Below, in pieces: positions 50,893-63,627 of a DNA stretch of 64,000 nt. Source of the stretch: Alphaproteobacteria bacterium (GTDB lineage: Bacteria > Pseudomonadota > Alphaproteobacteria > CACZRW01); the NCBI GenBank assembly GCA_017507765.1, contig JAFWAG010000001.1, forward strand, positions 7,013 to 71,012. Reading direction: 5' to 3'. The translations under genes were made by a program, and so were the position numbers. Every line of letters begins with the position of its first letter. Within the stretch, counting starts at the first letter, position 1. Under the pieces are notes generated by a model that saw only the letters and a program-made list of their open reading frames with translations, searched no databases and was not told the origin of the DNA.

Positions 50893-51870
50893 ATGCGCAT
50901 TAAAACTTTTTCCGCTCCCGACATGACCGAGGCTATGGCTCGGATACGCGCGGATTTAGGGGATAACGCCATCATTGTATCTTCGCAAAAAATAAACGGT
51001 GGGATAAGAGTTACCGCCGCAATAGAAGAAACCGAAGCCGAAAACGAACCGCCAAATAACAATCAGGGGAAAGATTCTTTGCCTAAGGCTCCCGTGCTTG
51101 ACTTGGCGCCGATAAAAGAAGCCCTAACCTATCACAAAGTTCCCGATGTGTTGGCGCAAAGAATTATCCTGATGGCAACGGAAGAAGTCCACCAAACCGC
51201 TTTAAAGGCTTTGGAATATGCTTTGGCAAAGTCATTTTTGTTTTCTCGGCTGCCGGATAATAAGCTGCCGAAAGTATTTATGCTGTTAGGTTCTTACGGG
51301 ACAGGAAAAACCATGGCAGCGGCAAAAATGGCGGCAAAAGCCAAAATGGCGGGCTTTACCCCCGGACTTATTACAACGGATTTTGCCAAACCGGCGGCGA
51401 TTGACGAACTTTCCGGTATTGCCAAAATCCTTGGGGCGGGATTTAGAAAAGCAAAAGATGCTTTGACTTTGGCGGATAAAATCGCCGAGCTGAAAGAATC
51501 CTGCGACTTTATTTACATAGATACTCCAGGAGTAAATCCTTTAAGCAAAGATTCTCTGGCGACTTTAACCGGTTTTGCCGGATTGCCCGAAATAACCAAA
51601 ATATTGACCGTGCCGGCAGGAATTGACGTAAACGATGCGGCGGAAATGGCTAATGCTTTTGCGACTTATACTCCGGCGGAATATATCCTGCCCACCAAAG
51701 TTGATGCGGCAAGACGGCTTGGTTCAATTCTGGTAAGTGCAGATATCGCCGATTTAAAGTTCTTTGAACTGTCTTTGAGTGCGAGTCTGGTTCGCTCGCT
51801 TGGCCCATTAAATGCTTTATCTCTGGCTCGGCTTATGCTGCCGGAGGAATATAACGCCCGCGAAGAGTAA
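50893..51870 (+). CDS. flhF: flagellar biosynthesis GTPase FlhF
   Basis: 325 aa. MRIKTFSAPDMTEAMARIRADLGDNAIIVS N-terminus and SRP-type NG domain motifs GSYGTGKT, DTPG and TKVD. Confidence 0.8.
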   Translation: MRIKTFSAPDMTEAMARIRADLGDNAIIVSSQKINGGIRVTAAIEETEAENEPPNNNQGKDSLPKAPVLDLAPIKEALTYHKVPDVLAQRIILMATEEVHQTALKALEYALAKSFLFSRLPDNKLPKVFMLLGSYGTGKTMAAAKMAAKAKMAGFTPGLITTDFAKPAAIDELSGIAKILGAGFRKAKDALTLADKIAELKESCDFIYIDTPGVNPLSKDSLATLTGFAGLPEITKILTVPAGIDVNDAAEMANAFATYTPAEYILPTKVDAARRLGSILVSADIADLKFFELSLSASLVRSLGPLNALSLARLMLPEEYNAREE

Positions 51871-51874
51871 TCTT

Positions 51875-52570
51875 ATGGCAGAAACGGCAAACTTAACCGC
51901 CATAGTATCCGGAAATGAAACCATAGGGAAAACTCGGATTGCAGTGGGACTGGCGGAAAGTTTTGCGGCTGCCGGAGAAAAAGTGCTTTTACTGGATACG
52001 GATATAGGATTTGGAAAACTTTCCGAATACTTAAAAGTAACCCCTGATGTCGACCTTTATGATGTATTGTACAACAGGGCGACATTAAATCAAGCAATCA
52101 TATTTTCTCCGGAAGGCGGGTTTGACGTTATCATCGGTTCCGGTAACAGTAAATGTAACATAGCCGCAATTCCGGAAAGCAATTTCTTTACCCTTAGGAA
52201 CGATATCCTATTACTGGCAGGAAATTATGACCGGGTAATAATCGATATGCCGACCGGAGAAAGCAAAAGCAATTTTTTATTACTGGACGCTTCGAAACAA
52301 ATTGTGCTGATTGCAAACGACCATGCGCCATCTATACGGGGAGCGTATGCCTTTATGGTCAGCATGGCAGAAAGAAAAATCTTGGCTAATATGGCGATTG
52401 CGGTAAATCTGGCTGCCACGGAAAAAGACGGAGAAACGGTATATCTTACCTTGCAAAAAGCCGCCAAAGCTTTTATTGGCAAAACACCGAAGTGGCTTGG
52501 AAACGTACGTAAAGACAACCTTGACGATATTTTATCTTTGGCAAAGGAGCTTGGCAAATGGACCTTGTAA
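51875..52570 (+). CDS. flhG: MinD/ParA-type flagellar number regulator FlhG (FleN) with a degenerate Walker A
   Basis: It sits directly after flhF. It carries the MinD-fold motifs LLLDTDIG and VIIDMPTG plus a C-terminal amphipathic helix. The P-loop reads SGNETIGKT instead of SGKGGVGKT. ATG 51875 is chosen over the track start 51812, which lies inside flhF. Confidence 0.75.
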   Translation: MAETANLTAIVSGNETIGKTRIAVGLAESFAAAGEKVLLLDTDIGFGKLSEYLKVTPDVDLYDVLYNRATLNQAIIFSPEGGFDVIIGSGNSKCNIAAIPESNFFTLRNDILLLAGNYDRVIIDMPTGESKSNFLLLDASKQIVLIANDHAPSIRGAYAFMVSMAERKILANMAIAVNLAATEKDGETVYLTLQKAAKAFIGKTPKWLGNVRKDNLDDILSLAKELGKWTL

Positions 52571-54540
52571 CACCTGTACCTTCGGCACCAGTTCCGCAAA
52601 GCTCCGGCGGAAGCGGGAATGCTTTGAATGCTTCGGTGCTTAACCCGTCAAAAGAGCTTGAAGCTTTAACACCGGAAAGCATCGTGAAAGGTGTCATTAC
52701 CGCTGTTGATAAAGTAAAAGGAAGTGTATCCGTTTACGGGCAGACGCCGGAAGAAAAACCTTTCAATATGGAAATTAAAATGCCTCTGATACCTGTAGAA
52801 GGAAGCGAGGTTAATATTAAAATCCTGCCCATAAGTCAAAGAACGCCGGAAAATCCTTTTCCTATAAAACTGGTTATAAATCCCAAAGCTTCTCCGCTTG
52901 CCACTCCTTTGCAGAATAGTGAATCAATGTTACAAAAAGGAATCTTGCCGGAAGCACAAAATGCCGGAAATAAGCCGATAGGGCAGCTTTCAACCCCTTC
53001 TTCCAATAGTGAATCAATATCACAACAAAGCGTTCCTGCGGATATAAAAAATGCGGCGGATAAAACTTTATCCTCGGCAAAAGCCGTTGATAACGCTTCT
53101 TTTTCCATAAAAAGTAATATTATAACAGCAGAGATATTATATACGGCGAAAAACATACCGGATATTAAGCTTATGCCTTCGCTTCAGCCGCAAAATATAA
53201 AGCCGGAAATGCAAACCGTTTTAAAAGCCGATGCATCATGGCAGGAGAATCCTCTGCCTATGGATATGGTGAAGCAAGGAACTTCTTTAAGTGTGAAAAT
53301 CGTTCAGGTGGAAGTTCCGGCAGGGAAACTTCCGGCGGGAAGTATTGCTTTGTCCGCAAGCCAACCGGCAAACGCAGGACAAGCAACGAGTCTTGGCCAA
53401 ACGCCAACAACGCAAGTAATGGGGGAAAACTTACCAAGCCGCCCGTATGAACAATTTTATCCTATGCCAAATCAGCCGGCACAAACGACGCAGACACAGC
53501 CCTTGTCCTCTTCCCCGCTTCCGAGTCAACCGATACAAACTCAAGCGCCTTTACCTACGGCTCAGCCTTCCTTGCCGAATGAAACGCAAGGACAGCCTGT
53601 GCAGACAATTCCGCCTCAGGGAAGCTCTGGGAATACTACCATATCCTCACCGAATACTAACTTTACGATAAGCGGAGAAGTCGTAAGCAAGCCTGCAGTA
53701 CCGCATACCGTTGTCGCGAATCAGGAAATGACCCTGTCTTTAAATATTAAAACCGAGTTTCCGACCGGAAGTTTAATAAAAATGGACGTTGTATCCTTAA
53801 CTCTGCCGGAAATAAATCCGAAGATGCCGGTATTAAATACGGTTAAAGCTGCTCCGCCGGACTTTACAGAGCTTAATACCGCCCTTAAAGAGCTTACCGT
53901 CAGCAATCCCAAAGCGGCGGCAGAGATGCTGGCAAAGATACCCCAACCGAATGAAAAGCTTGCCCAGAACCTCTTTAACTTTGTGCAGGCGGCTAAGTCC
54001 GGAGACGTTGGCCAATGGTTAGGAGCCGCAACCGTAAAAGCTTTGGAAGATACCGGCGATAACGGGCGAAAAATTACCGGAAAAATATCGGCAGATATGC
54101 TGGCAACATCACGAATAGCAACAGAAGCTTTGGGTGAATGGCGGACTTTAAATATTCCATTCTTGAACGGGCAAACCGTTCAGCCGGTTGCTTTGTTTGT
54201 AAAGCATCTTAACAATGAGGAGCAAGGACAGGAAACCACCCAAGGCAGCAAAAAATCTGCTTCGGTGCGCTTTTTATTTGAACTGGAGCTGTCAGAGCTT
54301 GGGCGGACGCAGATTGACGGCTTGACTTATCCAAAGGAAAAAGAGCTTGATTTGATTATCCGTAATGAAAAAGCTCTGCCGGAAGAAGCTCCCATCGCTA
54401 TGCGGGGAATATATGCCGAAGCTTTGGAGGCCGTGGGATATAAAGGCACCCTAACCTTACTTAAAACAAGTGATTTTATCGAAATAGCCGCGGCGGAAAA
54501 TGCCGAAGCATTCATTCCTAATTCAGATATTTGGGCATAA
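52558..54540 (+). CDS. Pro/Gln/Ser-rich protein with a FliK-like (Flg_hook-like) C-terminal domain
   Basis: 660 aa, overlapping flhG by 13 nt, with a low-complexity PQ-rich middle. The C-terminal RFLFELELSELGRTQIDGLTYPKEKELDLIIRNEKALPEE...YAEALEAVGY resembles the FliK C-terminal domain pattern. Confidence 0.5.
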   Translation: MDLVTPVPSAPVPQSSGGSGNALNASVLNPSKELEALTPESIVKGVITAVDKVKGSVSVYGQTPEEKPFNMEIKMPLIPVEGSEVNIKILPISQRTPENPFPIKLVINPKASPLATPLQNSESMLQKGILPEAQNAGNKPIGQLSTPSSNSESISQQSVPADIKNAADKTLSSAKAVDNASFSIKSNIITAEILYTAKNIPDIKLMPSLQPQNIKPEMQTVLKADASWQENPLPMDMVKQGTSLSVKIVQVEVPAGKLPAGSIALSASQPANAGQATSLGQTPTTQVMGENLPSRPYEQFYPMPNQPAQTTQTQPLSSSPLPSQPIQTQAPLPTAQPSLPNETQGQPVQTIPPQGSSGNTTISSPNTNFTISGEVVSKPAVPHTVVANQEMTLSLNIKTEFPTGSLIKMDVVSLTLPEINPKMPVLNTVKAAPPDFTELNTALKELTVSNPKAAAEMLAKIPQPNEKLAQNLFNFVQAAKSGDVGQWLGAATVKALEDTGDNGRKITGKISADMLATSRIATEALGEWRTLNIPFLNGQTVQPVALFVKHLNNEEQGQETTQGSKKSASVRFLFELELSELGRTQIDGLTYPKEKELDLIIRNEKALPEEAPIAMRGIYAEALEAVGYKGTLTLLKTSDFIEIAAAENAEAFIPNSDIWA

Positions 54541-55540: not shown

Positions 55541-55549
55541 AAATGTAAA

Positions 55550-55624
55550 TGGCTCCGACGGTAGGATTCGAACCTACGACCAGCCGGTTAACAGCCGGCT
55601 GCTCTACCACTGAGCTACGTCGGA
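55550..55624 (-). tRNA. tRNA-Asn (anticodon GTT)
   Basis: The reverse complement folds as TCCGACG-TA-GCTC-AGTGGTA-GAGC-A-GCCGG-CTGTTAA-CCGGC-TGGTC-GTAGG-TTCGAAT-CCTAC-CGTCGGA-G-CCA. It is 75 nt with an encoded CCA. Confidence 0.95.
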
Positions 55625-55646
55625 ACATTAGAAAATGTTCCTTCCG

Positions 55647-55721
55647 TGGAGGCCGAGGCCGGAATCGAACCGACATAAAAGGATTTGCAGTCCTCTGCAT
55701 GAGCCATTCTGCCACTCGGCC
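55647..55721 (-). tRNA. tRNA-Cys (anticodon GCA)
   Basis: The reverse complement is GGCCGAG-TG-GCA...TGC-A-GAGGA-CTGCAAA-TCCTT-TTAT-GTCGG-TTCGATT-CCGGC-CTCGGCC-T-CCA. It is 75 nt with an encoded CCA. Confidence 0.95.
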
Positions 55722-55879
55722 GACCTCAGAGCTCTGTTACCGATACAAAATCAGTAACGGAAGAAGCAACTTTATATACGCCCTTTTTGCTTAGGTCAAG
55801 AGAGAAAAATATTCTCTGGTGGATTTTTTTAAAAAAAGTTACATTGAAAACATATTATGTCAGGAAAAAGGATATAAAA

Positions 55880-56521
55880 ATGGATTTTTCCACCTCTGCT
55901 CGCCAAAATATGGTTGAAAATCAGCTTAAACCGCAAGGAATTATGAATGCGGCACTTTTGGAGGCTATGACAAACACTCCCAGAGAGGACTTCGTTCCCG
56001 AAGAATATGCGGATACGGCTTACAGTGATTTTGATATTCCTCTTACTGATACACGCTTTTTATTCCGCCCCGCAGAAGTCGCAAGATTTATTGCCGCCGC
56101 AGAGCTACAGCCTGATGACTTTGTCGCCGATATAGGCTGCAAGCTTGGCTATATAACTTTTATAACCGCTAAAATGGTAAAAGCCGTGGTCGGCATTGAA
56201 AGCGATAAAGCTTTGGCGGACAAAGCCGAAAACGCACTTTTGGAAGTCGACAATGCGGCAATCATTAACACCGATATGCATAAAGGAATGCCAAAGCAAG
56301 CACCTTTTGATGTGATATTTTTGGAAGAAATCCAAACCTCGGCTATGGCACCGAAACATTTTATTTCTCAGCTTGCGGATAACGGAAGACTGGTTTTCAT
56401 AACCGGAAAGGCGCCGATTTTAACCGTTCGGCTACTGATAAAAAAAAGGGAAGAAGTGTTTGAAAAAACGGCGTATCAATTCCTTTTAAACCCAGAAGCC
56501 CAAATTGCCCAAAGGGTTTAG
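55880..56521 (+). CDS. protein-L-isoaspartate O-methyltransferase-family protein (Pcm-like)
   Basis: MVENQLKPQGIMNAALLEAMTNTPREDFVPEEY and the SAM-binding DIGCKLGYITF. ATG 55880 (AGGAAAAAGGA upstream) is preferred over the track start 55787, which begins within 70 nt of the tRNA-Cys gene. Confidence 0.75.
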   Translation: MDFSTSARQNMVENQLKPQGIMNAALLEAMTNTPREDFVPEEYADTAYSDFDIPLTDTRFLFRPAEVARFIAAAELQPDDFVADIGCKLGYITFITAKMVKAVVGIESDKALADKAENALLEVDNAAIINTDMHKGMPKQAPFDVIFLEEIQTSAMAPKHFISQLADNGRLVFITGKAPILTVRLLIKKREEVFEKTAYQFLLNPEAQIAQRV

Positions 56522-56681: not shown

Positions 56682-58829
56682 ATGTTAGGGTTAATAGCTA
56701 CCCTGACACCGATACTTTATAAACACGTTGCCGACCGTCGGGAAGATATCGACAATATCAATGAAGCAAACACTCTGCTGTTAATTAAGAATGCTACCAA
56801 GGATTATATCGAGGCGAACAAAGATGTTTTATCCGTCGGTACTACCCTTCTTGAACCGGTTGATGTCGGAGTTGATATAGACGGTTACAAAATAGGTATA
56901 AAAAAGGATTCTGATGGCAACATAAATGCGATGATAGCCGCTTCTGACGGAAGCAATGATATGAAGGCTGCGAAGGTGGCGTCTTTGCTTGGGGTGTCGG
57001 CGGGGATTTATTCGGCGCAAGATGCTACCAGAGCTTGGGGTATTAACGGAGTCTGGGCAGAGAATGTAAGTAATTACGGTTTTACTTCTTTACCCGCAGG
57101 AATACCGGTGGTTACCACTACTTATGACGAAGAAGATAGCCTTGATATGGAGAAAATCTTTACGGCTATTGAAGAACACTCTTTTGAAAAGCTTACCGCC
57201 AAGGAGCTCTGCCTTGATAATGATGAACTGCCGGAAGAAGAACGCTGTATCACCAAATGGAAAGAGGAAACCTGTCCGGAATTAGTTGAGTTTTGCAATA
57301 ACGGGATAAAATGCCATGATGCATATTCCAAACGATGCAACCTGACCTGTAATGATATTTTGATAGGTTATCGGGCGGAAGGAATGACGCCTCAATCAAA
57401 TTATGATTTTCGTTTAACGGGAAGTAATTCAAACGGCGAAGCCAACAAAACCAAATGCTATTTCACTTCGACCACCGGATATAATGCGATAGAGATTATC
57501 GAAGCCTGTAACGGCGGTAATACGGAAGCTTGCAGTTTAGCAAATACCTATAGCCTTAACACCTCTTGTCAGAAGATTATAGATGCCTATAAAACGTTAA
57601 ACCAAACTCCGAGCAACGGTACATTTAAGCTTGGAGCAGCGGGAACGTCCACAGCCTGTTGGTTCAAAGACACCACAGGTTATTCAACCAAAGAAGTAAT
57701 TGAAAAATGTAATGCGGGAACAACGATTGCCTGCCAGATGGGAAGTGAGAATAAGTTAAACCGTACCTGTGCGGAATTGCAAACAGCGATGAAAAGTTAT
57801 GGAGCTATTCCGGCAAACGGCTCGTTCAAACTGACGCTGACCAGTACTACGGGTTCATCATATACTTGCGATATGAGCCAAACTCCGGCCTTAACGGAAT
57901 ACTTTTATAAAAACACGGCAGGGACATATACATTCAGTCTTTTAAGTAAAAAGATACAGTACAAGTTTGAAGTTTGCGGAGCTTCAAATTACGGTGGCAG
58001 AACACACGGAGGATATTCTTGGGGAAAGAAAATCCACAATTCCGCCCAAAGTTTTTTTGTGATTGTTGGTGGAATAGGAGGTGTCGGCACTTATGGTGCC
58101 TCTAGTTCCGGCGGAGGAACGGAGATACGTTTTGGAACATCTTCATGGGTTGATAAACACCGGATTTTAGTCGGCGGAGGAAGTAGCGGATATAATGCAA
58201 GTGCTACTCCTGGAGCTGGAGGAGGAGGCAACAATTGCGGCGGAGGCGGAGCAATGGGAGGTTGTAAAGGTGTTGGCGGCAGAGGATATGGAAATCCCAA
58301 CACTCCTGGAACTATCGGTCATGGAGGAGCTTCCGGCTTGTCTTGGTATGCAGGAACAGGAGGTAATGGAGGTGGCTACGGCGGCGGTGGTGGTGGAGGC
58401 GGCGACTGGGCTGGCTATGGCGGAGGCGGCGGAGGTGGCTTCGGCGGTGGAGGTCAAGGTGGCTCCTATGGTTGGGGTGCCGGTGCGAGCGGTACGGCAA
58501 CAAACGGTGGTGGTGGCACGACCGGATATAACGGAGGTTACGGTCAGGCAGATGGTGACGGAGGTTTTGGCGGTGGCGGCGGCTCAGACTGGGGAAGCGG
58601 AGGGGGCGGCTACGGCGGAGGTGGCGGCGGTGGCAGAGCCTCAGACGGAACCGCTGACCTCTCTGGCGGCGGGGGCGGCGGGCGAGTCTGTCTGGCGACT
58701 ATGCCGGCAGGGTGGCCGGCTTGTGACCCTGCGGTATGGGTGTTTGACGAAGGCTCCGGCGAAACCGGCAGTGATAAATGTCCCGGCACAGGTTGGGTAA
58801 AAATATCCGTGATAGAAATAAAGGAATAA
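56682..58829 (+). CDS. pilin-like-anchored cysteine-repeat / polyglycine-domain surface protein (longest intact ORF; the coding frame is open from 56616 and probably initiates at 56591 via the C-tract)
   Basis: 715-aa ORF. The upstream in-frame sequence encodes QSG/SITVEVIIMLGLIA (prepilin-like G-1/E+5). Three Cys-containing repeats follow, then a glycine-rich domain (GTYTFS...EVCGA...GGY...VIVGGIGG...GGGTEIRFG...RILVGGGSSG) and about 170 residues of polyglycine blocks. Confidence 0.7.
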   Translation: MLGLIATLTPILYKHVADRREDIDNINEANTLLLIKNATKDYIEANKDVLSVGTTLLEPVDVGVDIDGYKIGIKKDSDGNINAMIAASDGSNDMKAAKVASLLGVSAGIYSAQDATRAWGINGVWAENVSNYGFTSLPAGIPVVTTTYDEEDSLDMEKIFTAIEEHSFEKLTAKELCLDNDELPEEERCITKWKEETCPELVEFCNNGIKCHDAYSKRCNLTCNDILIGYRAEGMTPQSNYDFRLTGSNSNGEANKTKCYFTSTTGYNAIEIIEACNGGNTEACSLANTYSLNTSCQKIIDAYKTLNQTPSNGTFKLGAAGTSTACWFKDTTGYSTKEVIEKCNAGTTIACQMGSENKLNRTCAELQTAMKSYGAIPANGSFKLTLTSTTGSSYTCDMSQTPALTEYFYKNTAGTYTFSLLSKKIQYKFEVCGASNYGGRTHGGYSWGKKIHNSAQSFFVIVGGIGGVGTYGASSSGGGTEIRFGTSSWVDKHRILVGGGSSGYNASATPGAGGGGNNCGGGGAMGGCKGVGGRGYGNPNTPGTIGHGGASGLSWYAGTGGNGGGYGGGGGGGGDWAGYGGGGGGGFGGGGQGGSYGWGAGASGTATNGGGGTTGYNGGYGQADGDGGFGGGGGSDWGSGGGGYGGGGGGGRASDGTADLSGGGGGGRVCLATMPAGWPACDPAVWVFDEGSGETGSDKCPGTGWVKISVIEIKE
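57339..57875 (+). repeat. three tandem divergent coding repeats (about 72, 68 and 37 aa) with conserved cysteines
   Basis: TCNDILIGYRAEGMTPQSNYDFRL...CYFTSTTGYNAIEIIEACNGGNTEAC / SCQKIIDAYKTLNQTPSNGTFKL...CWFKDTTGYSTKEVIEKCNAGTTIAC / TCAELQTAMKSYGAIPANGSFKL...YTC. Confidence 0.8.
58170..58685 (+). repeat. low-complexity GGN-codon block (polyglycine runs punctuated by Y/W/F/D/S)
   Basis: Encodes GGGYGGGGGGGGDWAGYGGGGGGGFGGGGQGGSYGWG...GGFGGGGGSDWGSGGGGYGGGGGGG. It is visibly G+C-rich relative to its surroundings. Confidence 0.9.
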
Positions 58830-58847
58830 CGAAATACGACTTTATAA

Positions 58848-60413
58848 TTATAAGTAAGCTTGGCTTTCGTAATTATCCAGTAAATCGTTTTCTATCAAAA
58901 GCGTATCACCGGCGATAAGATTCTTATCCAACCAAGCGAAAGCTTCGGTGCGGGTGGGAAGCTCGATAAGTTCGGCATCTTTGGGAGCGTTATCCCGAAA
59001 GGCTTTAATAAAAGCCTGCATACGCTCTGGTACTATTATCAGAGCGATGTCCGCAACTTTGGCCGCTTTCTTGCCAAGTTCGGAATGCAATTCATCATGC
59101 AATGCACCCATTTCTATCATGCCGGGAGTCATAAGAATTGTCCTGTCCTGCCGAAGATTACCAAGAAGCTCTATCGCCGAACGGAAACCGTCAACATTGG
59201 AATTATACGCATCGTCAATTATGGTGATGTTGCCCGTTTGTCTTTTGACTTCCAAACGATGCTCTATCTGCGGCAAAGAACGAATACGTGCCGCAATCGT
59301 ATTCATCGGCACGCCAAGCTTAAGCGCCATAACTACCGCTAAGGCAATGTTTGCTATGTGATGCTTGCCAAACAACGGAACTTCCAAACGGCTTTTCTGA
59401 CCTTCGGCAACAAAGGTAAAGCTTAAACCTTCGGCGGTCTGTTCCGCACTTTCGCAATAATAATCTTCCCCTTCGCCGACAATGACGGCCGACGGAGCTT
59501 TACTTAAAAACTCAGGTGCTATCTGCGCCTTATTTAAAACCAGAATGCCGCCCTTTTCTTCCACGGCTTCGGCAAGCTCGAACTTTGCCTTGGCAACATT
59601 GCCAACCGTTTTAAAACGGGCATAATGCGCACTGCCTACGGCGGTGATAATCCCGTCATCAGGGTGGACCAAATCACAAAGCCGACGAATGGAACCGGGG
59701 TAATATGCGCCCATTTCAACAATGAAAAACTTATGCTCCGGACGTAAATCCCGATTGATAATCCGGCAAACACCCATAAGCGTATTGACACTGCCGGGGG
59801 TAAATAAAACCGGAGCGCCCGCAGATAAAATGTGCGCTAAAATATGCTTGGTCGATGTCTTGCCATAAGAACCCGTAATGCCGATAATCCGTGCCGAAGA
59901 TGCGGAAAGCTTTTTCTTTGCCGATTTTATAAAGCCTTTGCGGTAATACGCTTCCAAAGGAAATAATAAAATATTTGCCAGAATCAACACCAAAGGAAGG
60001 AAGAAAATAATTCCCGCAGACGTAAATATAAAGAAAGAAGGAACTATAACCCAACTTAAGTAAAATAATCCGGCAGTTAAAATAATACTTACGCTATAGA
60101 TTCTTTTGGCTCGATTAGTTACCGCCAATTTTTTCTTTGCGCTTTGCATTACTTTGATTTCCCGCCACGCAAACCCAACGAATAAAGCTAAGGAAAGCAA
60201 AGCCGCCCACGGAAAATAAACCGCACCTATGCCAATTATAACCAACGGGAGAACCAACTTTTTATCCAAAAGGCGGGCTTTGAGACAAACCGTTTTGGCA
60301 TAGGAAGATGCTTCGTATTCGTCCTGTTGAAACAGCCACAGTAAAAAACGCAGACGAAAGCCGCAGAAAACAAACGCTGACAACAAAACCGCAAGCATCA
60401 GTTCAAAAGGCAT
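58848..60413 (-). CDS. membrane-anchored Mur ligase-family protein (MurF-like catalytic region)
   Basis: 521 aa. The N-terminal ~165 aa contain about four hydrophobic helices. These are followed by ARIIGITGSYGKTSTKHIL (the Mur ligase P-loop), IVEMGA, and the C-terminal ILMTPGMIEMGALHDELH resembling MurF. Confidence 0.75.
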   Translation of the reverse strand: MPFELMLAVLLSAFVFCGFRLRFLLWLFQQDEYEASSYAKTVCLKARLLDKKLVLPLVIIGIGAVYFPWAALLSLALFVGFAWREIKVMQSAKKKLAVTNRAKRIYSVSIILTAGLFYLSWVIVPSFFIFTSAGIIFFLPLVLILANILLFPLEAYYRKGFIKSAKKKLSASSARIIGITGSYGKTSTKHILAHILSAGAPVLFTPGSVNTLMGVCRIINRDLRPEHKFFIVEMGAYYPGSIRRLCDLVHPDDGIITAVGSAHYARFKTVGNVAKAKFELAEAVEEKGGILVLNKAQIAPEFLSKAPSAVIVGEGEDYYCESAEQTAEGLSFTFVAEGQKSRLEVPLFGKHHIANIALAVVMALKLGVPMNTIAARIRSLPQIEHRLEVKRQTGNITIIDDAYNSNVDGFRSAIELLGNLRQDRTILMTPGMIEMGALHDELHSELGKKAAKVADIALIIVPERMQAFIKAFRDNAPKDAELIELPTRTEAFAWLDKNLIAGDTLLIENDLLDNYESQAYL

Positions 60414-61165
60414 TATTTTATCTCCGCTAAAAAGTTTTCAATTTGATTTTCGACCAAAGGTGCGCCGGAAGCAAGAACCGTATAATGGTCATGCATAGGA
60501 AGTTCGCTATATTTGGCATCGGGCATAAGCTCTTGGAAACGTTTGCCTAAATAAGACGGAGTTGCCGTATCTTCGGCTCCGTAAAGCAATAAAACCGGAC
60601 AAGAAACCTGCATCGCCTTTAAAGAAAGGTCTTTATTCACGGATTTAACCAATATCTGCCGCATTATCGGCGAAGCGTTACGGTAATCCGCACTGCCAAG
60701 TTTAAGACTACGGATAACCGGAAGCGATTTTATTTGCGGAAATCTGCGGATAAGGCGGGAAAGCCTCTTCATAAAGAAAGCTTTTATCTTAAAGCCAAGA
60801 CTGCGCTTTACTTTCAGTCCGGGGGAAGCAATCAAAACCATAGCCTTGATGCTGTGCGGGTATTTTGCCGCCGCTTCAATGGCAACCCTGCCCCCGAAAG
60901 AATGCGTGATTAAAACCGTATCTTTGGGCGGAAGCGAAGAAATAAAATCTTGAAGCAAGTCCGCATAATCTTCGGTATCCAAAGGCTTGTCCGGCTCGGG
61001 AGATTCTCCGAACCCCGGCAAATCAATTAAATAGTTTTCCGCCGAGTCTTGGAAATACTCCGCCAAAGGAAGCAAAGCCTTATGACTATGCCCCCAACCG
61101 TGTAGCCAAATTAGCCGGAGCGGAAGATTGTCAGAAGCAGACTTTAGCTTTAGCGTAAACATCAC
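60413..61165 (-). CDS. alpha/beta-fold hydrolase
   Basis: 250 aa. LIWLHGWGHS, DLPGFGES, the nucleophile elbow THSFGG, and a C-terminal His (HDHY). Its stop overlaps the start of the MurF-like gene. Confidence 0.75.
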   Translation of the reverse strand: MMFTLKLKSASDNLPLRLIWLHGWGHSHKALLPLAEYFQDSAENYLIDLPGFGESPEPDKPLDTEDYADLLQDFISSLPPKDTVLITHSFGGRVAIEAAAKYPHSIKAMVLIASPGLKVKRSLGFKIKAFFMKRLSRLIRRFPQIKSLPVIRSLKLGSADYRNASPIMRQILVKSVNKDLSLKAMQVSCPVLLLYGAEDTATPSYLGKRFQELMPDAKYSELPMHDHYTVLASGAPLVENQIENFLAEIK

Positions 61166-62388
61166 TTGTCTTCAAAAATCCGATTGTCTTTTAACGTACC
61201 GTAAGCAAGCGACTTTTTGCCTGCTTCGGCAAACGCTTCTTCGATAATGGCAGTTAAAAGCTTGGTAAAGTTTACTTTAGGTTCGGCATTTTCCCATAAA
61301 TAAAACGCAAACGAACCAGGGATGGGATTTACTTCCCCAAGCCATAATTCTCCGGTCTTGGTGTTGCAAAGGAAATCTATTCTGGGGGCGCCGTTGCCGT
61401 CCATAGCCACGAACAATGTCTTTGCCCAAGAAAGTATTTTTTCCCGCTGTTCCTTGGTAAGTTCTTTCGGATTATATTCTCGGCTTAAACTAACCAAACC
61501 GCGAATATCGGCATTGCCGGACTTTGCACCCTTTACGCCCTTTCCTTTGCCGCCGGCTTTATACTTGTCCGCAAAGTCTAAGATAGCATTTTTCTTTGCC
61601 GGACGCTCGATAGCAGAACAGGAAGGCTCGCCGAAAATGCGGGTAACCGAAACGTTATACTCCTCAAGATTTTCTACAAATGGCTCAACAATAGCCTGAT
61701 TGTCCAAAGCAAAAACTTTGATAACCGCAGAATCAAGTTCTTCTTTGGTCGTTACTTTGCTGACCGCAATGCTGCTGCCAAGATGCAACGGCTTTACACA
61801 AAGCGGGAACGGAAGGTTTACGTCCTTGGTAATATCCTTTACGTCAAAGAACGCTTTGTTTTCCGGACGGTTTAAAACGACTTCCGGTAAAACCGGTATG
61901 CCAAGAGTGCGGCAGAGTTGCTTGGTCGTAACCTTGTTCATAAAAACATTCGCCGCAAGCATACGGCAGCCGGTATAGGGAATGCCCGCACTTTCCATTA
62001 AACCTTGGAAAGCCCCCGTTTCACCAAAATCACCATGAAACGCAAGAAATGCCGCATCAAAATATATCGGCTTTTTTGCGGCAAAAATGCCACCGGAAAC
62101 CGGCTGTAAATAACCGACGCCGTCGCCAAGGCAGAACTTTACTTTGGTAATGTCTTTCGGCTGTTTTACCGCCAAAGGATAGTTATCCTGATTCAAAAGA
62201 CCGTTGCCGGTCCACCAATTGCGGTTCAAATCAATATAAACCGGAAAAACTTCAAACTTGCTCTGGTCAATAACCTTTATCGCCTGTAATCCGGTCAAAA
62301 TGCTGATATCATGTTCGAAAGATTGTTCGCCAAAAAATACCGCAATTTTCTTTCTTGCCATTACCATAAAACTCCCTAATGTATACAA
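61162..62388 (-). CDS. D-alanine--D-alanine ligase-family ATP-grasp enzyme (long form with a Lys/Gly-rich insertion)
   Basis: 408 aa. KKIAVFFGEQSFEHDISILTG, HGDFGETGAFQGLMESAGIPYTG, NKVTTKQL, RIDFL...GEVNPIPG. The likely start is at Met10 (62361). It overlaps the hydrolase gene by 4 nt. Confidence 0.8.
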   Translation of the reverse strand: MYTLGSFMVMARKKIAVFFGEQSFEHDISILTGLQAIKVIDQSKFEVFPVYIDLNRNWWTGNGLLNQDNYPLAVKQPKDITKVKFCLGDGVGYLQPVSGGIFAAKKPIYFDAAFLAFHGDFGETGAFQGLMESAGIPYTGCRMLAANVFMNKVTTKQLCRTLGIPVLPEVVLNRPENKAFFDVKDITKDVNLPFPLCVKPLHLGSSIAVSKVTTKEELDSAVIKVFALDNQAIVEPFVENLEEYNVSVTRIFGEPSCSAIERPAKKNAILDFADKYKAGGKGKGVKGAKSGNADIRGLVSLSREYNPKELTKEQREKILSWAKTLFVAMDGNGAPRIDFLCNTKTGELWLGEVNPIPGSFAFYLWENAEPKVNFTKLLTAIIEEAFAEAGKKSLAYGTLKDNRIFEDK

Positions 62389-62430: not shown

Positions 62431-63627
62431 TTGTTAACAAAAAAAAGAAATAACCTGATAATCCGGAATATCAAACTCTATCCTTGGCACTATTTATTTC
62501 GCGGCTGTATTCCGTCTACGCCTATAGCTATTTTATACTTTGCCGAGGTTACTAATTCTTATGCGGCGGCAACAAGTATTTTTGCTTTGCACTTTATCGC
62601 TATTGCCTTGTTTGAAATACCGTGCGGAGTTTTTTCTGACCAATACTTGGGAAGAAAACGGACTATTATTGCCGCTAATCTTACCAGACTGGCGGCTTTT
62701 ATTATTTTTCCTTTGGCAGCAATTACCGGAGGATACCAACTTTTACTTATCGGTGCTTTGATGATGGGGCTTTCCGATGCTTTGTTCAGCGGAACCGAAG
62801 AAAGCCTTCTATACGAAAGCGTTTCCGAAGCAAAAAAGGAAAAAATCTTTCATGAAATATTCGGACGCTGCCGCTCGATAATGCAATTGGGAATGGTTAT
62901 CGGAACGTTGTTGGGCTTTGGCTTTGCTTACATATTTTCTTTGCTGACCGCAATGTGGATAACGATATTCTTCGGAATAGCCGGACTGGTTGTTGACCTT
63001 TTTCTGATGAAGCCCAAAAGCAATGTCTTGGACCGGACGGCGATGCATCTGCAAATAAAGCAAGCTTTTGCTTTGATGAAAAGTAATCGCCTGATTAAAG
63101 ATATCGCTACCGCTCGCCTGTTAAACTATAGCGCAGGCGAAGTTTTATACCGCTTTGAAGTCGCTTTCTTTTATACTTTGGTGCCGCTGTGGGCTATCGG
63201 TATCGCCCGCATAGAACGCCAAGCCTTGGGGATTATAAGTTTCTGGTTCTCCGGCTCTTTAATCAGCAAGTTCAGCTTCCGCAAAGTTCTGCCGTGGTCG
63301 GCAGCCGGAGATATTGCTTCCCGCTTTACCGGACTGTGCTTAAACAATGTTTTGACACCTTTTTTGCTGCCGCTGAGCAATTTATTCCTTGGCACAGAAA
63401 TGACGGCTTCGGATACCTTGCTTCAAAGAGAGTTTAAAGATTCCCTGCGGGCAACGGTATTATCGCTGATTTCTTTAGGGGTGAATATCATAAGCGCTCT
63501 CTTATATCTGTTTGTCGGCTTCCTTGCCGATTTAACCAACCCTTTAACCGCAATGTTTTTTGCGCTAGGATTCAAAGCTCTGGCAGTTCCTTTGTATTTC
63601 CGGATTGCTTCGTGGTTAAGGGTGTAG
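62431..63627 (+). CDS. MFS-type transporter
   Basis: 398 aa, about 10-12 hydrophobic helices, GVFSDQYLGRKRTII (MFS loop 2-3 motif), TTG start with an AAGGGAAG SD. Confidence 0.7.
   Translation: MLTKKRNNLIIRNIKLYPWHYLFRGCIPSTPIAILYFAEVTNSYAAATSIFALHFIAIALFEIPCGVFSDQYLGRKRTIIAANLTRLAAFIIFPLAAITGGYQLLLIGALMMGLSDALFSGTEESLLYESVSEAKKEKIFHEIFGRCRSIMQLGMVIGTLLGFGFAYIFSLLTAMWITIFFGIAGLVVDLFLMKPKSNVLDRTAMHLQIKQAFALMKSNRLIKDIATARLLNYSAGEVLYRFEVAFFYTLVPLWAIGIARIERQALGIISFWFSGSLISKFSFRKVLPWSAAGDIASRFTGLCLNNVLTPFLLPLSNLFLGTEMTASDTLLQREFKDSLRATVLSLISLGVNIISALLYLFVGFLADLTNPLTAMFFALGFKALAVPLYFRIASWLRV

Follow-up and report, generated by a model that had tools for sequence, protein, structure and literature searches.

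A membrane-anchored MurF-type ligase encoded with Ddl and an EstV-like hydrolase: a probable sole Ddl/MurF pair in an alphaproteobacterial genome

The operon and its products

We analysed a stretch of 64,000 nucleotides (hereafter the window) from the genome of Alphaproteobacteria bacterium (assembly GCA_017507765.1; G000 among the genomes compared here), in which three minus-strand genes encode a D-Ala-D-Ala ligase (Ddl), an alpha/beta serine hydrolase (ABH) and a membrane-anchored MurF-type ligase (TM-MurF, where TM stands for transmembrane; Table 1). These open reading frames (ORFs) had been listed in a preliminary description of the sequence, and all three were recovered at the same positions. 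The stop of ddl and the start of the hydrolase gene meet in the sequence GTGATG, and the stop of the latter and the start of TM-murF in TAATG, so that the trio is read as translationally coupled. The 1-nt overlap at 60413 reported previously stands, whereas the 4-nt overlap at 61162–61165 holds only if the hydrolase starts at the GTG at 61165; orthologues favour the ATG at 61162 (249 aa), which leaves an overlap of 1 nt. The true start of Ddl is probably the ATG at 62367 (401 aa) rather than the TTG at 62388; GGGAG precedes this ATG, and alignments of the protein with PDB entries begin there and not at 62388. Scans of the operon for promoters and terminators returned chance-level counts (7 found vs. 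6.0 expected; 8 vs. 6.0) and we therefore draw no conclusion from them.

No mur or fts gene lies near the trio, as had been remarked before, which holds within the window and for the G000 genome only: the module is found inside the division and cell wall (dcw) cluster in Poribacteria and Micavibrio-type genomes. The divergent gene for a major facilitator superfamily (MFS) transporter is probably not a further member of the module and was rejected as such, since it adjoins the module elsewhere only in G001, a genome of the same genus. At the other end of the operon, a gene for a 715-aa pilin-like, Cys-rich and glycine-rich protein converges on the stop of TM-murF, with 18 bp between the two stops.

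Table 1. Features of the operon and its surroundings, with further loci from the host and two other carrier genomes. Positions are those of the window unless a genome and contig are named.
Feature	Position	Strand	Details
Ddl gene	61162–62388	−	408 aa from TTG at 62388
Lys/Gly-rich insertion of Ddl	61471–61551	−	~27 aa, aa 280–306, GKGKGVKGAKSGNADIRG..., just after the omega-loop KY
ABH gene	60413–61165	−	250 aa from GTG
HGW motif of hydrolase	61094–61102	−	
HSFGG motif of hydrolase	60890–60904	−	nucleophile Ser89
Lid motif GSADY of hydrolase	60683–60697	−	
Asp199 of hydrolase	within 60557–60577	−	
His227 of hydrolase	within 60482–60493	−	
TM-MurF gene	58848–60413	−	521 aa
Membrane domain of TM-MurF	59919–60413	−	aa 1–165, in place of MurF domain 1
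Conserved loop motif FQQDEY	60315–60332	−	
Conserved loop motif AKKKLAVTNRAKR	60102–60140	−	
P-loop GITGSYGKTST	59850–59882	−	intact
Mur ligase central (ATP-binding) domain	59328–59879	−	Pfam PF08245, E = 1.4e-32
MurF-type motif IDDAYNSN	59196–59219	−	just upstream of C-terminal domain
Mur ligase C-terminal domain	58893–59261	−	Pfam PF02875, E = 7.7e-12
MurE-MurF′ fusion	G000 C31:400–2733	−	778 aa; full MurE, 622 bits, above cutoff
Canonical MurF/TM-type pair of G155	C9:40990–42285 and C19:101097–102659		
Canonical MurF/TM-type pair of G161	C1:1731768–1733045 and C1:524979–526577		
MFS transporter gene	62431–63627	+	398 aa; divergent from operon, 42-bp intergenic gap
Gene for pilin-like protein	56682–58829	+	715 aa
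Gene for PCMT-like protein	55787–56521	+	
tRNA-Asn(GTT) and tRNA-Cys(GCA) genes	55550–55721	−	
MinD/ParA-like ATPase ORF and following gene	51812–54540	+	252 aa and 660 aa

The catalytic part of TM-MurF corresponds to that of a MurF. Pfam places Mur_ligase_M at aa 179–362 and Mur_ligase_C at aa 385–507, the VEMG motif is intact, and the IDDAYNSN motif aligned with DDSYNAN of Escherichia coli MurF (PDB 1GG4), residues 99–388 of which aligned with TM-MurF. The two Pfam domains, the P-loop and the DDAYNSN motif thus confirm an earlier description of a full Mur-ligase catalytic region with a MurF-like C-terminus. The MurF model TIGR01143 matched TM-MurF with 235 bits over model positions 63–376, and the next Mur types scored far below (MurD, 74 bits; MurC, 73 bits). 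All of the top seven PDB sequence matches and all of the top ten fold matches were MurF (best matches at E = 5.5e-33 and 7e-23; ~371 aligned columns), while the FolC and pMur families scored poorly. An analogy to cyanophycin synthetase and CapB drawn previously did not hold, as the cyanophycin synthetase model gave 28 bits (cutoff 850), the NCBIfam search of TM-MurF gave no match to CapB, and the partner encoded in the operon is a Ser hydrolase.

TM-MurF therefore shares with canonical MurF (EC 6.3.2.10; PDB 1GG4, 4QF5, 4CVM and 3ZL8) the central domain, the P-loop, the C-terminal domain and the DDAYNSN-type motif. It differs from canonical MurF in that model positions 1–62 (domain 1) are gone and a membrane domain of about 165 aa stands in their place, and further in an aromatic P-loop residue, an obligate hydrolase neighbour and its position in a separate clade on a long stem (see below). 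The P-loop signature was TGS[Y/F]GKT in 31 of 31 TM-type sequences as against TGS[V/S/A/C/T]GKT in 20 of 20 canonical MurFs, and the aromatic vs. small residue could be used as an annotation marker between the two MurF lineages.

The MurF N-domain is read as absent because the alignment to TIGR01143 begins only at model position 63; Pfam likewise gave no match in residues 1–178. Hydropathy marks hydrophobic segments at residues 5–28, 52–83 and 105–157. In the AlphaFold2 model (predicted local distance difference test, pLDDT, 89.1; predicted template modelling score, pTM, 0.81) the N-domain forms an all-helical bundle with helices at residues 3–30, 51–66, 68–91, 100–123, 125–137 and 139–171, the last of which continues into the ligase domain. 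In an alignment of 31 homologues the residues R20, Q29, Y33, D50, K93, T99, R101, P140 and N147 are invariant, and the two loop motifs of Table 1 take the forms FQQ[D/E]EY and AKKKLxxTxRAKR. Homologues with 29–75% identity align from about residue 5 of TM-MurF. When 1.84 billion representative proteins were searched with the N-domain, 80 matched, every one of them either at the N-terminus of a Mur ligase of ~510–560 aa or on a contig-end fragment. Hydropathy, the AlphaFold2 model and conservation across phyla agree in confirming a membrane region of about 165 aa instead of the MurF N-domain, as had been described. One apparent fusion of the hydrolase to the TM domain (P0148, a potential Rosetta-stone protein) was rejected, as the gene call is frameshifted and comes from a high-GC contig.

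The hydrolase matched Abhydrolase_1/_6 in Pfam. Its best NCBIfam match, over the full length, was to the EstV family lipases (NF058580), at 119.7 bits against a cutoff of 300, so that we regard it as distantly related rather than as an equivalog; BioH was the second-best family (66 bits). The HGW motif, the HSxG nucleophile, the Asp, the His and the lid motif GSxDY are unchanged in 16 orthologues across phyla, and because of this invariance we read the hydrolase as an active Ser-Asp-His enzyme. Its AlphaFold2 model (pLDDT 90.3) has BioH and small carboxylesterases as nearest folds. Since all folds returned by the search were small carboxylesterases of a generic kind (BioH, aryl esterases and PlaF), and the PDB sequence search was likewise generic, no substrate can be inferred from these matches.

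Ddl contains both Pfam domains of its family (Dala_Dala_lig_N, PF01820, and Dala_Dala_lig_C, PF07478), can be aligned over its whole length with DdlA-type structures and retains the Lys-Tyr of the omega-loop that is typical of D-Ala-D-Ala ligases (DKYK vs. SKYK in Staphylococcus aureus Ddl). The insertion that follows this loop splits the match to the Ddl model, and the same split occurs in the Ddls of G001, G002, G017, G043 and G045. For the C-terminal half the only match was PDB 2PVP (E = 1.4e-8), which we take to be the structure of Helicobacter pylori Ddl (HP0738). Both proteins have NPIPGS.A.YL-type motifs, which places the window Ddl, as judged from sequence, in the 2PVP subfamily.

MurF and Ddl genes of the host genome

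The G000 assembly comprises 1.41 Mb in 77 contigs and is 87.8% complete, with the window lying on contig C21. The preliminary description had asked whether canonical ddl and murF genes exist elsewhere in this genome. A search of the assembly with the Ddl model returned no second Ddl, and in the search with the MurF model the best match was the TM-MurF of the window and no other intact MurF was found, the murF slot of the dcw cluster itself being observed. This dcw cluster is broken up, with rsmH, ftsI and a frame of 778 aa on contig C31, mraY, ftsW, murG and murC on contig C24 and murD on contig C59; penicillin-binding proteins (PBPs) are also present. The 778-aa frame encodes a MurE fused to a tail of ~260 aa that matches the first 260 positions of an alphaproteobacterial MurF model. 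This stub consists of the MurF N-domain and a degenerate central domain in which IAFFENSISEQ replaces the GITGSxGKTS P-loop; it ends two thirds into the central domain, has no C-terminal domain and, unlike TM-MurF, no intact VEMG motif. On these features we judge the dcw murF of G000 to be dead as an enzyme. Since the pathway is otherwise present, the cell needs MurF activity, and the gene in the window is the only intact candidate.

The P-loop-less fusion was also found in G001, G002 and G042. That of G039 retains SGIAGKTS and a downstream frame for the C-terminal domain and looks like an intermediate state, and other genomes of the class encode full MurE-MurF chimeras of ~950–990 aa. A natural MurE-MurF chimera is known in Bordetella pertussis (PDB 8F5D; PNAS 2023, PMC10214165), in a paper that makes no mention of transmembrane MurFs or hydrolase partners. 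The G000 cluster resembles the Bordetella case in encoding MurE fused to MurF sequence and differs from it in that the MurF part is a stub without P-loop or C-terminal domain that is still, by the following comparison, under apparent purifying selection. In a comparison of G000 with its congener G001 the stub is open over 257 codons, with proportions of non-synonymous and synonymous differences (pN and pS) of 0.25 and 0.66; the ratio of the corresponding substitution rates (dN/dS) is ~0.19 for the stub vs. 0.05 for the MurE part, the former being only qualitative because dS is near saturation. Qualitatively, then, the stub appears to be under purifying selection and not simply decaying. A 'split MurF', in which TM-MurF would obligatorily need the MurE-fused N-domain, was rejected as a general mechanism, because such a stub is missing from Poribacteria, Micavibrio-type genomes and most of the other carriers.

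A paralogue of the 715-aa pilin-like protein, with a near-identical N-terminus (LIASLTPVLYKHVADRRQDIDNINEANTLLL), is encoded on the same contig as the fusion (C31:1–400). It stands immediately downstream of the fusion, in the usual position of mraY.

Distribution, synteny and phylogeny of the membrane-type MurF

We searched 401 evenly drawn genomes of the class with full-length TM-MurF, defining a carrier of the TM-type by an alignment that starts at query residue ≤80 with E ≤ 1e-69 and counting second MurF-like matches at E ≤ 1e-12. The TM-type was found in 25 genomes, 23 of which had no second MurF-like match, while 341 of the 376 non-carriers had exactly one canonical-type match, starting at residue ~160–175. 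Canonical MurF and the TM-type are thus nearly mutually exclusive (Fisher p = 1.4e-19). Carrier genomes of 3.5 and 5.3 Mb were among those found, so the TM-type is not confined to reduced genomes. When 15 carriers were scored with TIGR01143, the TM-type was always the best match and none of the 15 TM-types reached the cutoff.

The hydrolase gene lies directly upstream of TM-murF and in the same orientation in 24 of the 25 class carriers and in all of seven further carriers, which include Poribacteria and a genome of the Candidate Phyla Radiation (CPR), i.e. in 31 of 32 altogether. The sole exception, G090, has an unrelated gene upstream of TM-murF on a contig of 3.9 kb. Ddl adjoins the pair in most carriers, and the conservation of the module beyond the window, raised as a question before, is thereby established for hydrolase and ligase in all carriers but one and for Ddl in most cases. 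On the Poribacteria chromosome the gene order is ftsI-murE-ABH-TMmurF-ddl-mraY-murD-ftsW-murG-murC, with the hydrolase and TM-MurF exactly at the murF slot. In the Micavibrio-type genome and five other carriers murE is directly followed by mraY. The single ligase between ftsI and mraY has the MurE signature DDNPR in G045 (Micavibrio-type), G044, G032, G041, G022, G017 and Poribacteria, i.e. in every such ligase checked, and these clusters are therefore without canonical murF.

A tree with MurE as the outgroup was built from the ligase regions of 31 TM-type MurFs and of 20 canonical ones from Alphaproteobacteria. In it the TM-type was monophyletic (support 99/95) on a stem of length 1.7, and it formed its own clade beside canonical MurF. 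The CPR and Poribacteria members are basal within the TM-type, the alphaproteobacterial TM-types form one clade (100/99), and the canonical MurFs of G155 and G161, two genomes that also carry the TM-type, grouped with the other canonical MurFs. Monophyly, the long stem and the basal position of CPR and Poribacteria lead us to regard the TM-type as an old, separate MurF lineage and not a local derivative.

Role of the module and competing explanations

We consider it likely that the trio is the organism's sole working Ddl/MurF and performs D-Ala-D-Ala addition at the membrane, as a system of the Helicobacter type. Both the sole copies in G000 and the grouping of the two proteins with housekeeping Ddl and MurF, in sequence as well as in fold, favour this, and so bear out what the preliminary description had offered as its fallback, a divergent ddl/murF pair. 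MurF is by textbook a soluble cytoplasmic enzyme and an antibiotic target. The operon would here supply the two steps that complete the peptidoglycan stem peptide on the cytoplasmic face: Ddl would produce D-Ala-D-Ala, and TM-MurF, using ATP, would add it to the MurNAc-tripeptide precursor, acting at the inner membrane face beside MraY and not free in the cytoplasm, with the esterase in a coupled or accessory role. The module would have functionally displaced canonical murF, of which only the non-catalytic N-domain stub fused to MurE remains. We infer that TM-MurF has D-Ala-D-Ala-adding activity, and we assume UDP-MurNAc-tripeptide as the acceptor; the ligase may form a physical complex with the esterase.

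The likeness to the H. pylori type lies in the N-terminal TM helices, in a hydrolase whose best family is EstV, in a Ddl of the 2PVP subfamily and in the three-gene content. HP0738 (ddlA), HP0739 (estV) and HP0740 (murF) are presumably adjacent in H. pylori, and a literature search gave no published gene order for HP0738/HP0739. To our knowledge, work on EstV has so far treated it solely as a stand-alone lipase; the literature search returned no paper treating the trio as a module, linking EstV to MurF or describing a displacement of canonical murF. H. pylori murF is HP0740, of 1485 bp (PMC6501431), and its product is described as an essential peptidoglycan enzyme that carries four TM domains at its N-terminus and is counted among the inner-membrane proteins (PMC9448923, citing Blair et al. 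2018). EstV of H. pylori is a family-V short-chain carboxylesterase that prefers C2–C6 esters (PMC3741291, citing Ruiz et al. 2007). Unlike the H. pylori trio, the module in the window lies outside the dcw cluster and coexists with a MurE-fused MurF stub, and its Ddl differs from that of H. pylori by the additional Lys/Gly-rich loop.

Several points weigh against a sole Ddl/MurF of this type. In canonical MurF the UDP-MurNAc part of the substrate is bound by domain 1; with this domain lost, acceptor recognition is left unexplained. With 235 bits TM-MurF remains below the NCBIfam cutoff of TIGR01143 (288.6), as does Ddl below that of TIGR01205 (218.8 bits; cutoff 245.65), in the latter case because the match is split by the 27-aa insertion; the module Ddls of G048 and G032 exceed the cutoff (287 and 256 bits). 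G155 and G161 have a canonical MurF above the cutoff (375 and 331 bits) in addition to the TM-type, so the two MurF forms can coexist and may not be strictly redundant everywhere. In the CPR carrier L040 (a Staskawiczbacteria metagenome-assembled genome; 5175–7512) the hydrolase and TM-MurF occur with no detectable Ddl, and the dipeptide or other added unit must therefore come from another enzyme. Given the completeness of the assembly, the absence of another ddl or murF in G000 is not absolute. The likeness of TM-MurF to H. pylori MurF follows from a published description and not from a sequence alignment, and we found no measured enzyme activity for any member of a TM-type module.

An unlikely alternative is that the acceptor is lipid-linked, i.e. 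undecaprenyl-PP-MurNAc-tripeptide (lipid I/II-tripeptide) formed after MraY, with the esterase as a coupled membrane step. The complete loss of domain 1 would fit such an acceptor, as would the last TM helix being continuous with the ligase domain and the gene order of the examined loci, which is either murE-mraY or murE-module-mraY; a pyrophosphate-lipid head group could be held by the loop motifs, whose polar and basic residues are invariant, but these basic loops are equally explained by the positive-inside rule of a plain anchor. A membrane anchor would suit channelling of UDP-MurNAc-pentapeptide to MraY just as well, and the MurE-fused stub (dN/dS as above) could supply binding of the UDP-precursor in trans. 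MurT, a Mur-ligase homologue without domain 1 that acts on lipid II (PMC6085368), offers an analogy in favour. Like MurT of the MurT/GatD pair, TM-MurF has no domain 1 and is encoded beside a partner with a catalytic triad, and MurT/GatD works on a membrane-bound precursor, likenesses that we take as analogy only. TM-MurF differs from MurT in scoring 19 bits on the MurT model (cutoff 800), in having no DUF1727 and in being membrane-embedded, and the partner is a Ser-Asp-His esterase in the window and a glutaminase in MurT/GatD. More broadly, the membrane domain and the nearly always linked esterase with its intact catalytic residues leave a rather small chance that the last stem-peptide step itself departs from the textbook, through a lipid-linked acceptor at the membrane or through a membrane complex with MraY that involves a novel kind of esterase chemistry, which could be e.g. 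editing, de-esterification or release. In this family the MurE stub would serve as a hand-off adaptor between MurE and the membrane ligase.

The preliminary description had preferred a separate membrane-associated pathway, in which the ATP-grasp enzyme would act with the membrane Mur ligase to build a peptide on, or attach it to, another envelope component or exported product and the hydrolase would trim or release it. The position of the operon outside dcw in G000, the scores of both ligases below the curated family cutoffs, the canonical MurF kept in two carriers and the two Ddls of one Micavibrio carrier are compatible with such an accessory role. This role would, however, leave 23 of the 25 class carriers without any MurF, while PBPs need pentapeptide donors and the examined carrier clusters retain murC/D/E, mraY, murG and ftsI. 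The module of Poribacteria stands at the murF slot of dcw, and sequence and fold group the proteins with MurF and Ddl, with cyanophycin synthetase, MurT, FolC and pMur all poor. We therefore regard an accessory pathway as very improbable, the sole Ddl/MurF and the housekeeping grouping both speaking against it.

The weakest alternative is an annotation artefact, in which the true protein would be a shortened, soluble Mur ligase and the membrane region would stem from a start called too far upstream or from fusion to a preceding ORF. This reading can point to internal ATG, GTG and TTG codons at TM-MurF residues 89, 96 and 141–153 and has next to no probability, as the N-domain aligns from about residue 5 in homologues down to 29% identity and across phyla, contains invariant residues, is confidently predicted and packed on the ligase via a continuous helix, starts at a codon translationally coupled to the upstream stop and has a published counterpart in the TM domains of H. 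pylori MurF; the conservation data thus exclude the wrong start that had been raised as a concern.

With the trio read as the likely sole Ddl/MurF of its host, the locus amounts to a natural experiment in which a membrane MurF lineage without domain 1 can fully replace canonical MurF. The module type is already known but barely studied; the local twist is a selected, non-catalytic MurF stub on MurE. The locus sharpens, also for H. pylori and Campylobacter, the questions of how the acceptor is recognized without the UDP-binding domain and what task the always-linked serine esterase has; should the step turn out to depend on the esterase, the latter would offer a new target in epsilonproteobacterial pathogens. 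We suggest annotating these genes as ddl and murF (membrane type) instead of 'Mur ligase family protein'.

The remaining features lie at lower window coordinates than the pilin-like gene. One gene encodes a protein similar to protein-L-isoaspartate O-methyltransferase (PCMT; Pfam, 94.6 bits; NCBIfam equivalog, 120.6 bits vs. a cutoff of 188). The tRNA-Asn and tRNA-Cys genes are overlapped by an 81-aa ORF (55549–55794, plus strand), which was rejected as merely their antisense translation. Farther away, the MinD/ParA-like ATPase ORF is followed by a gene for a Pro/Gln/Ser-rich protein, a pair that, judged by eye, is possibly a flagellar FlhG and a hook-length-control-like protein.

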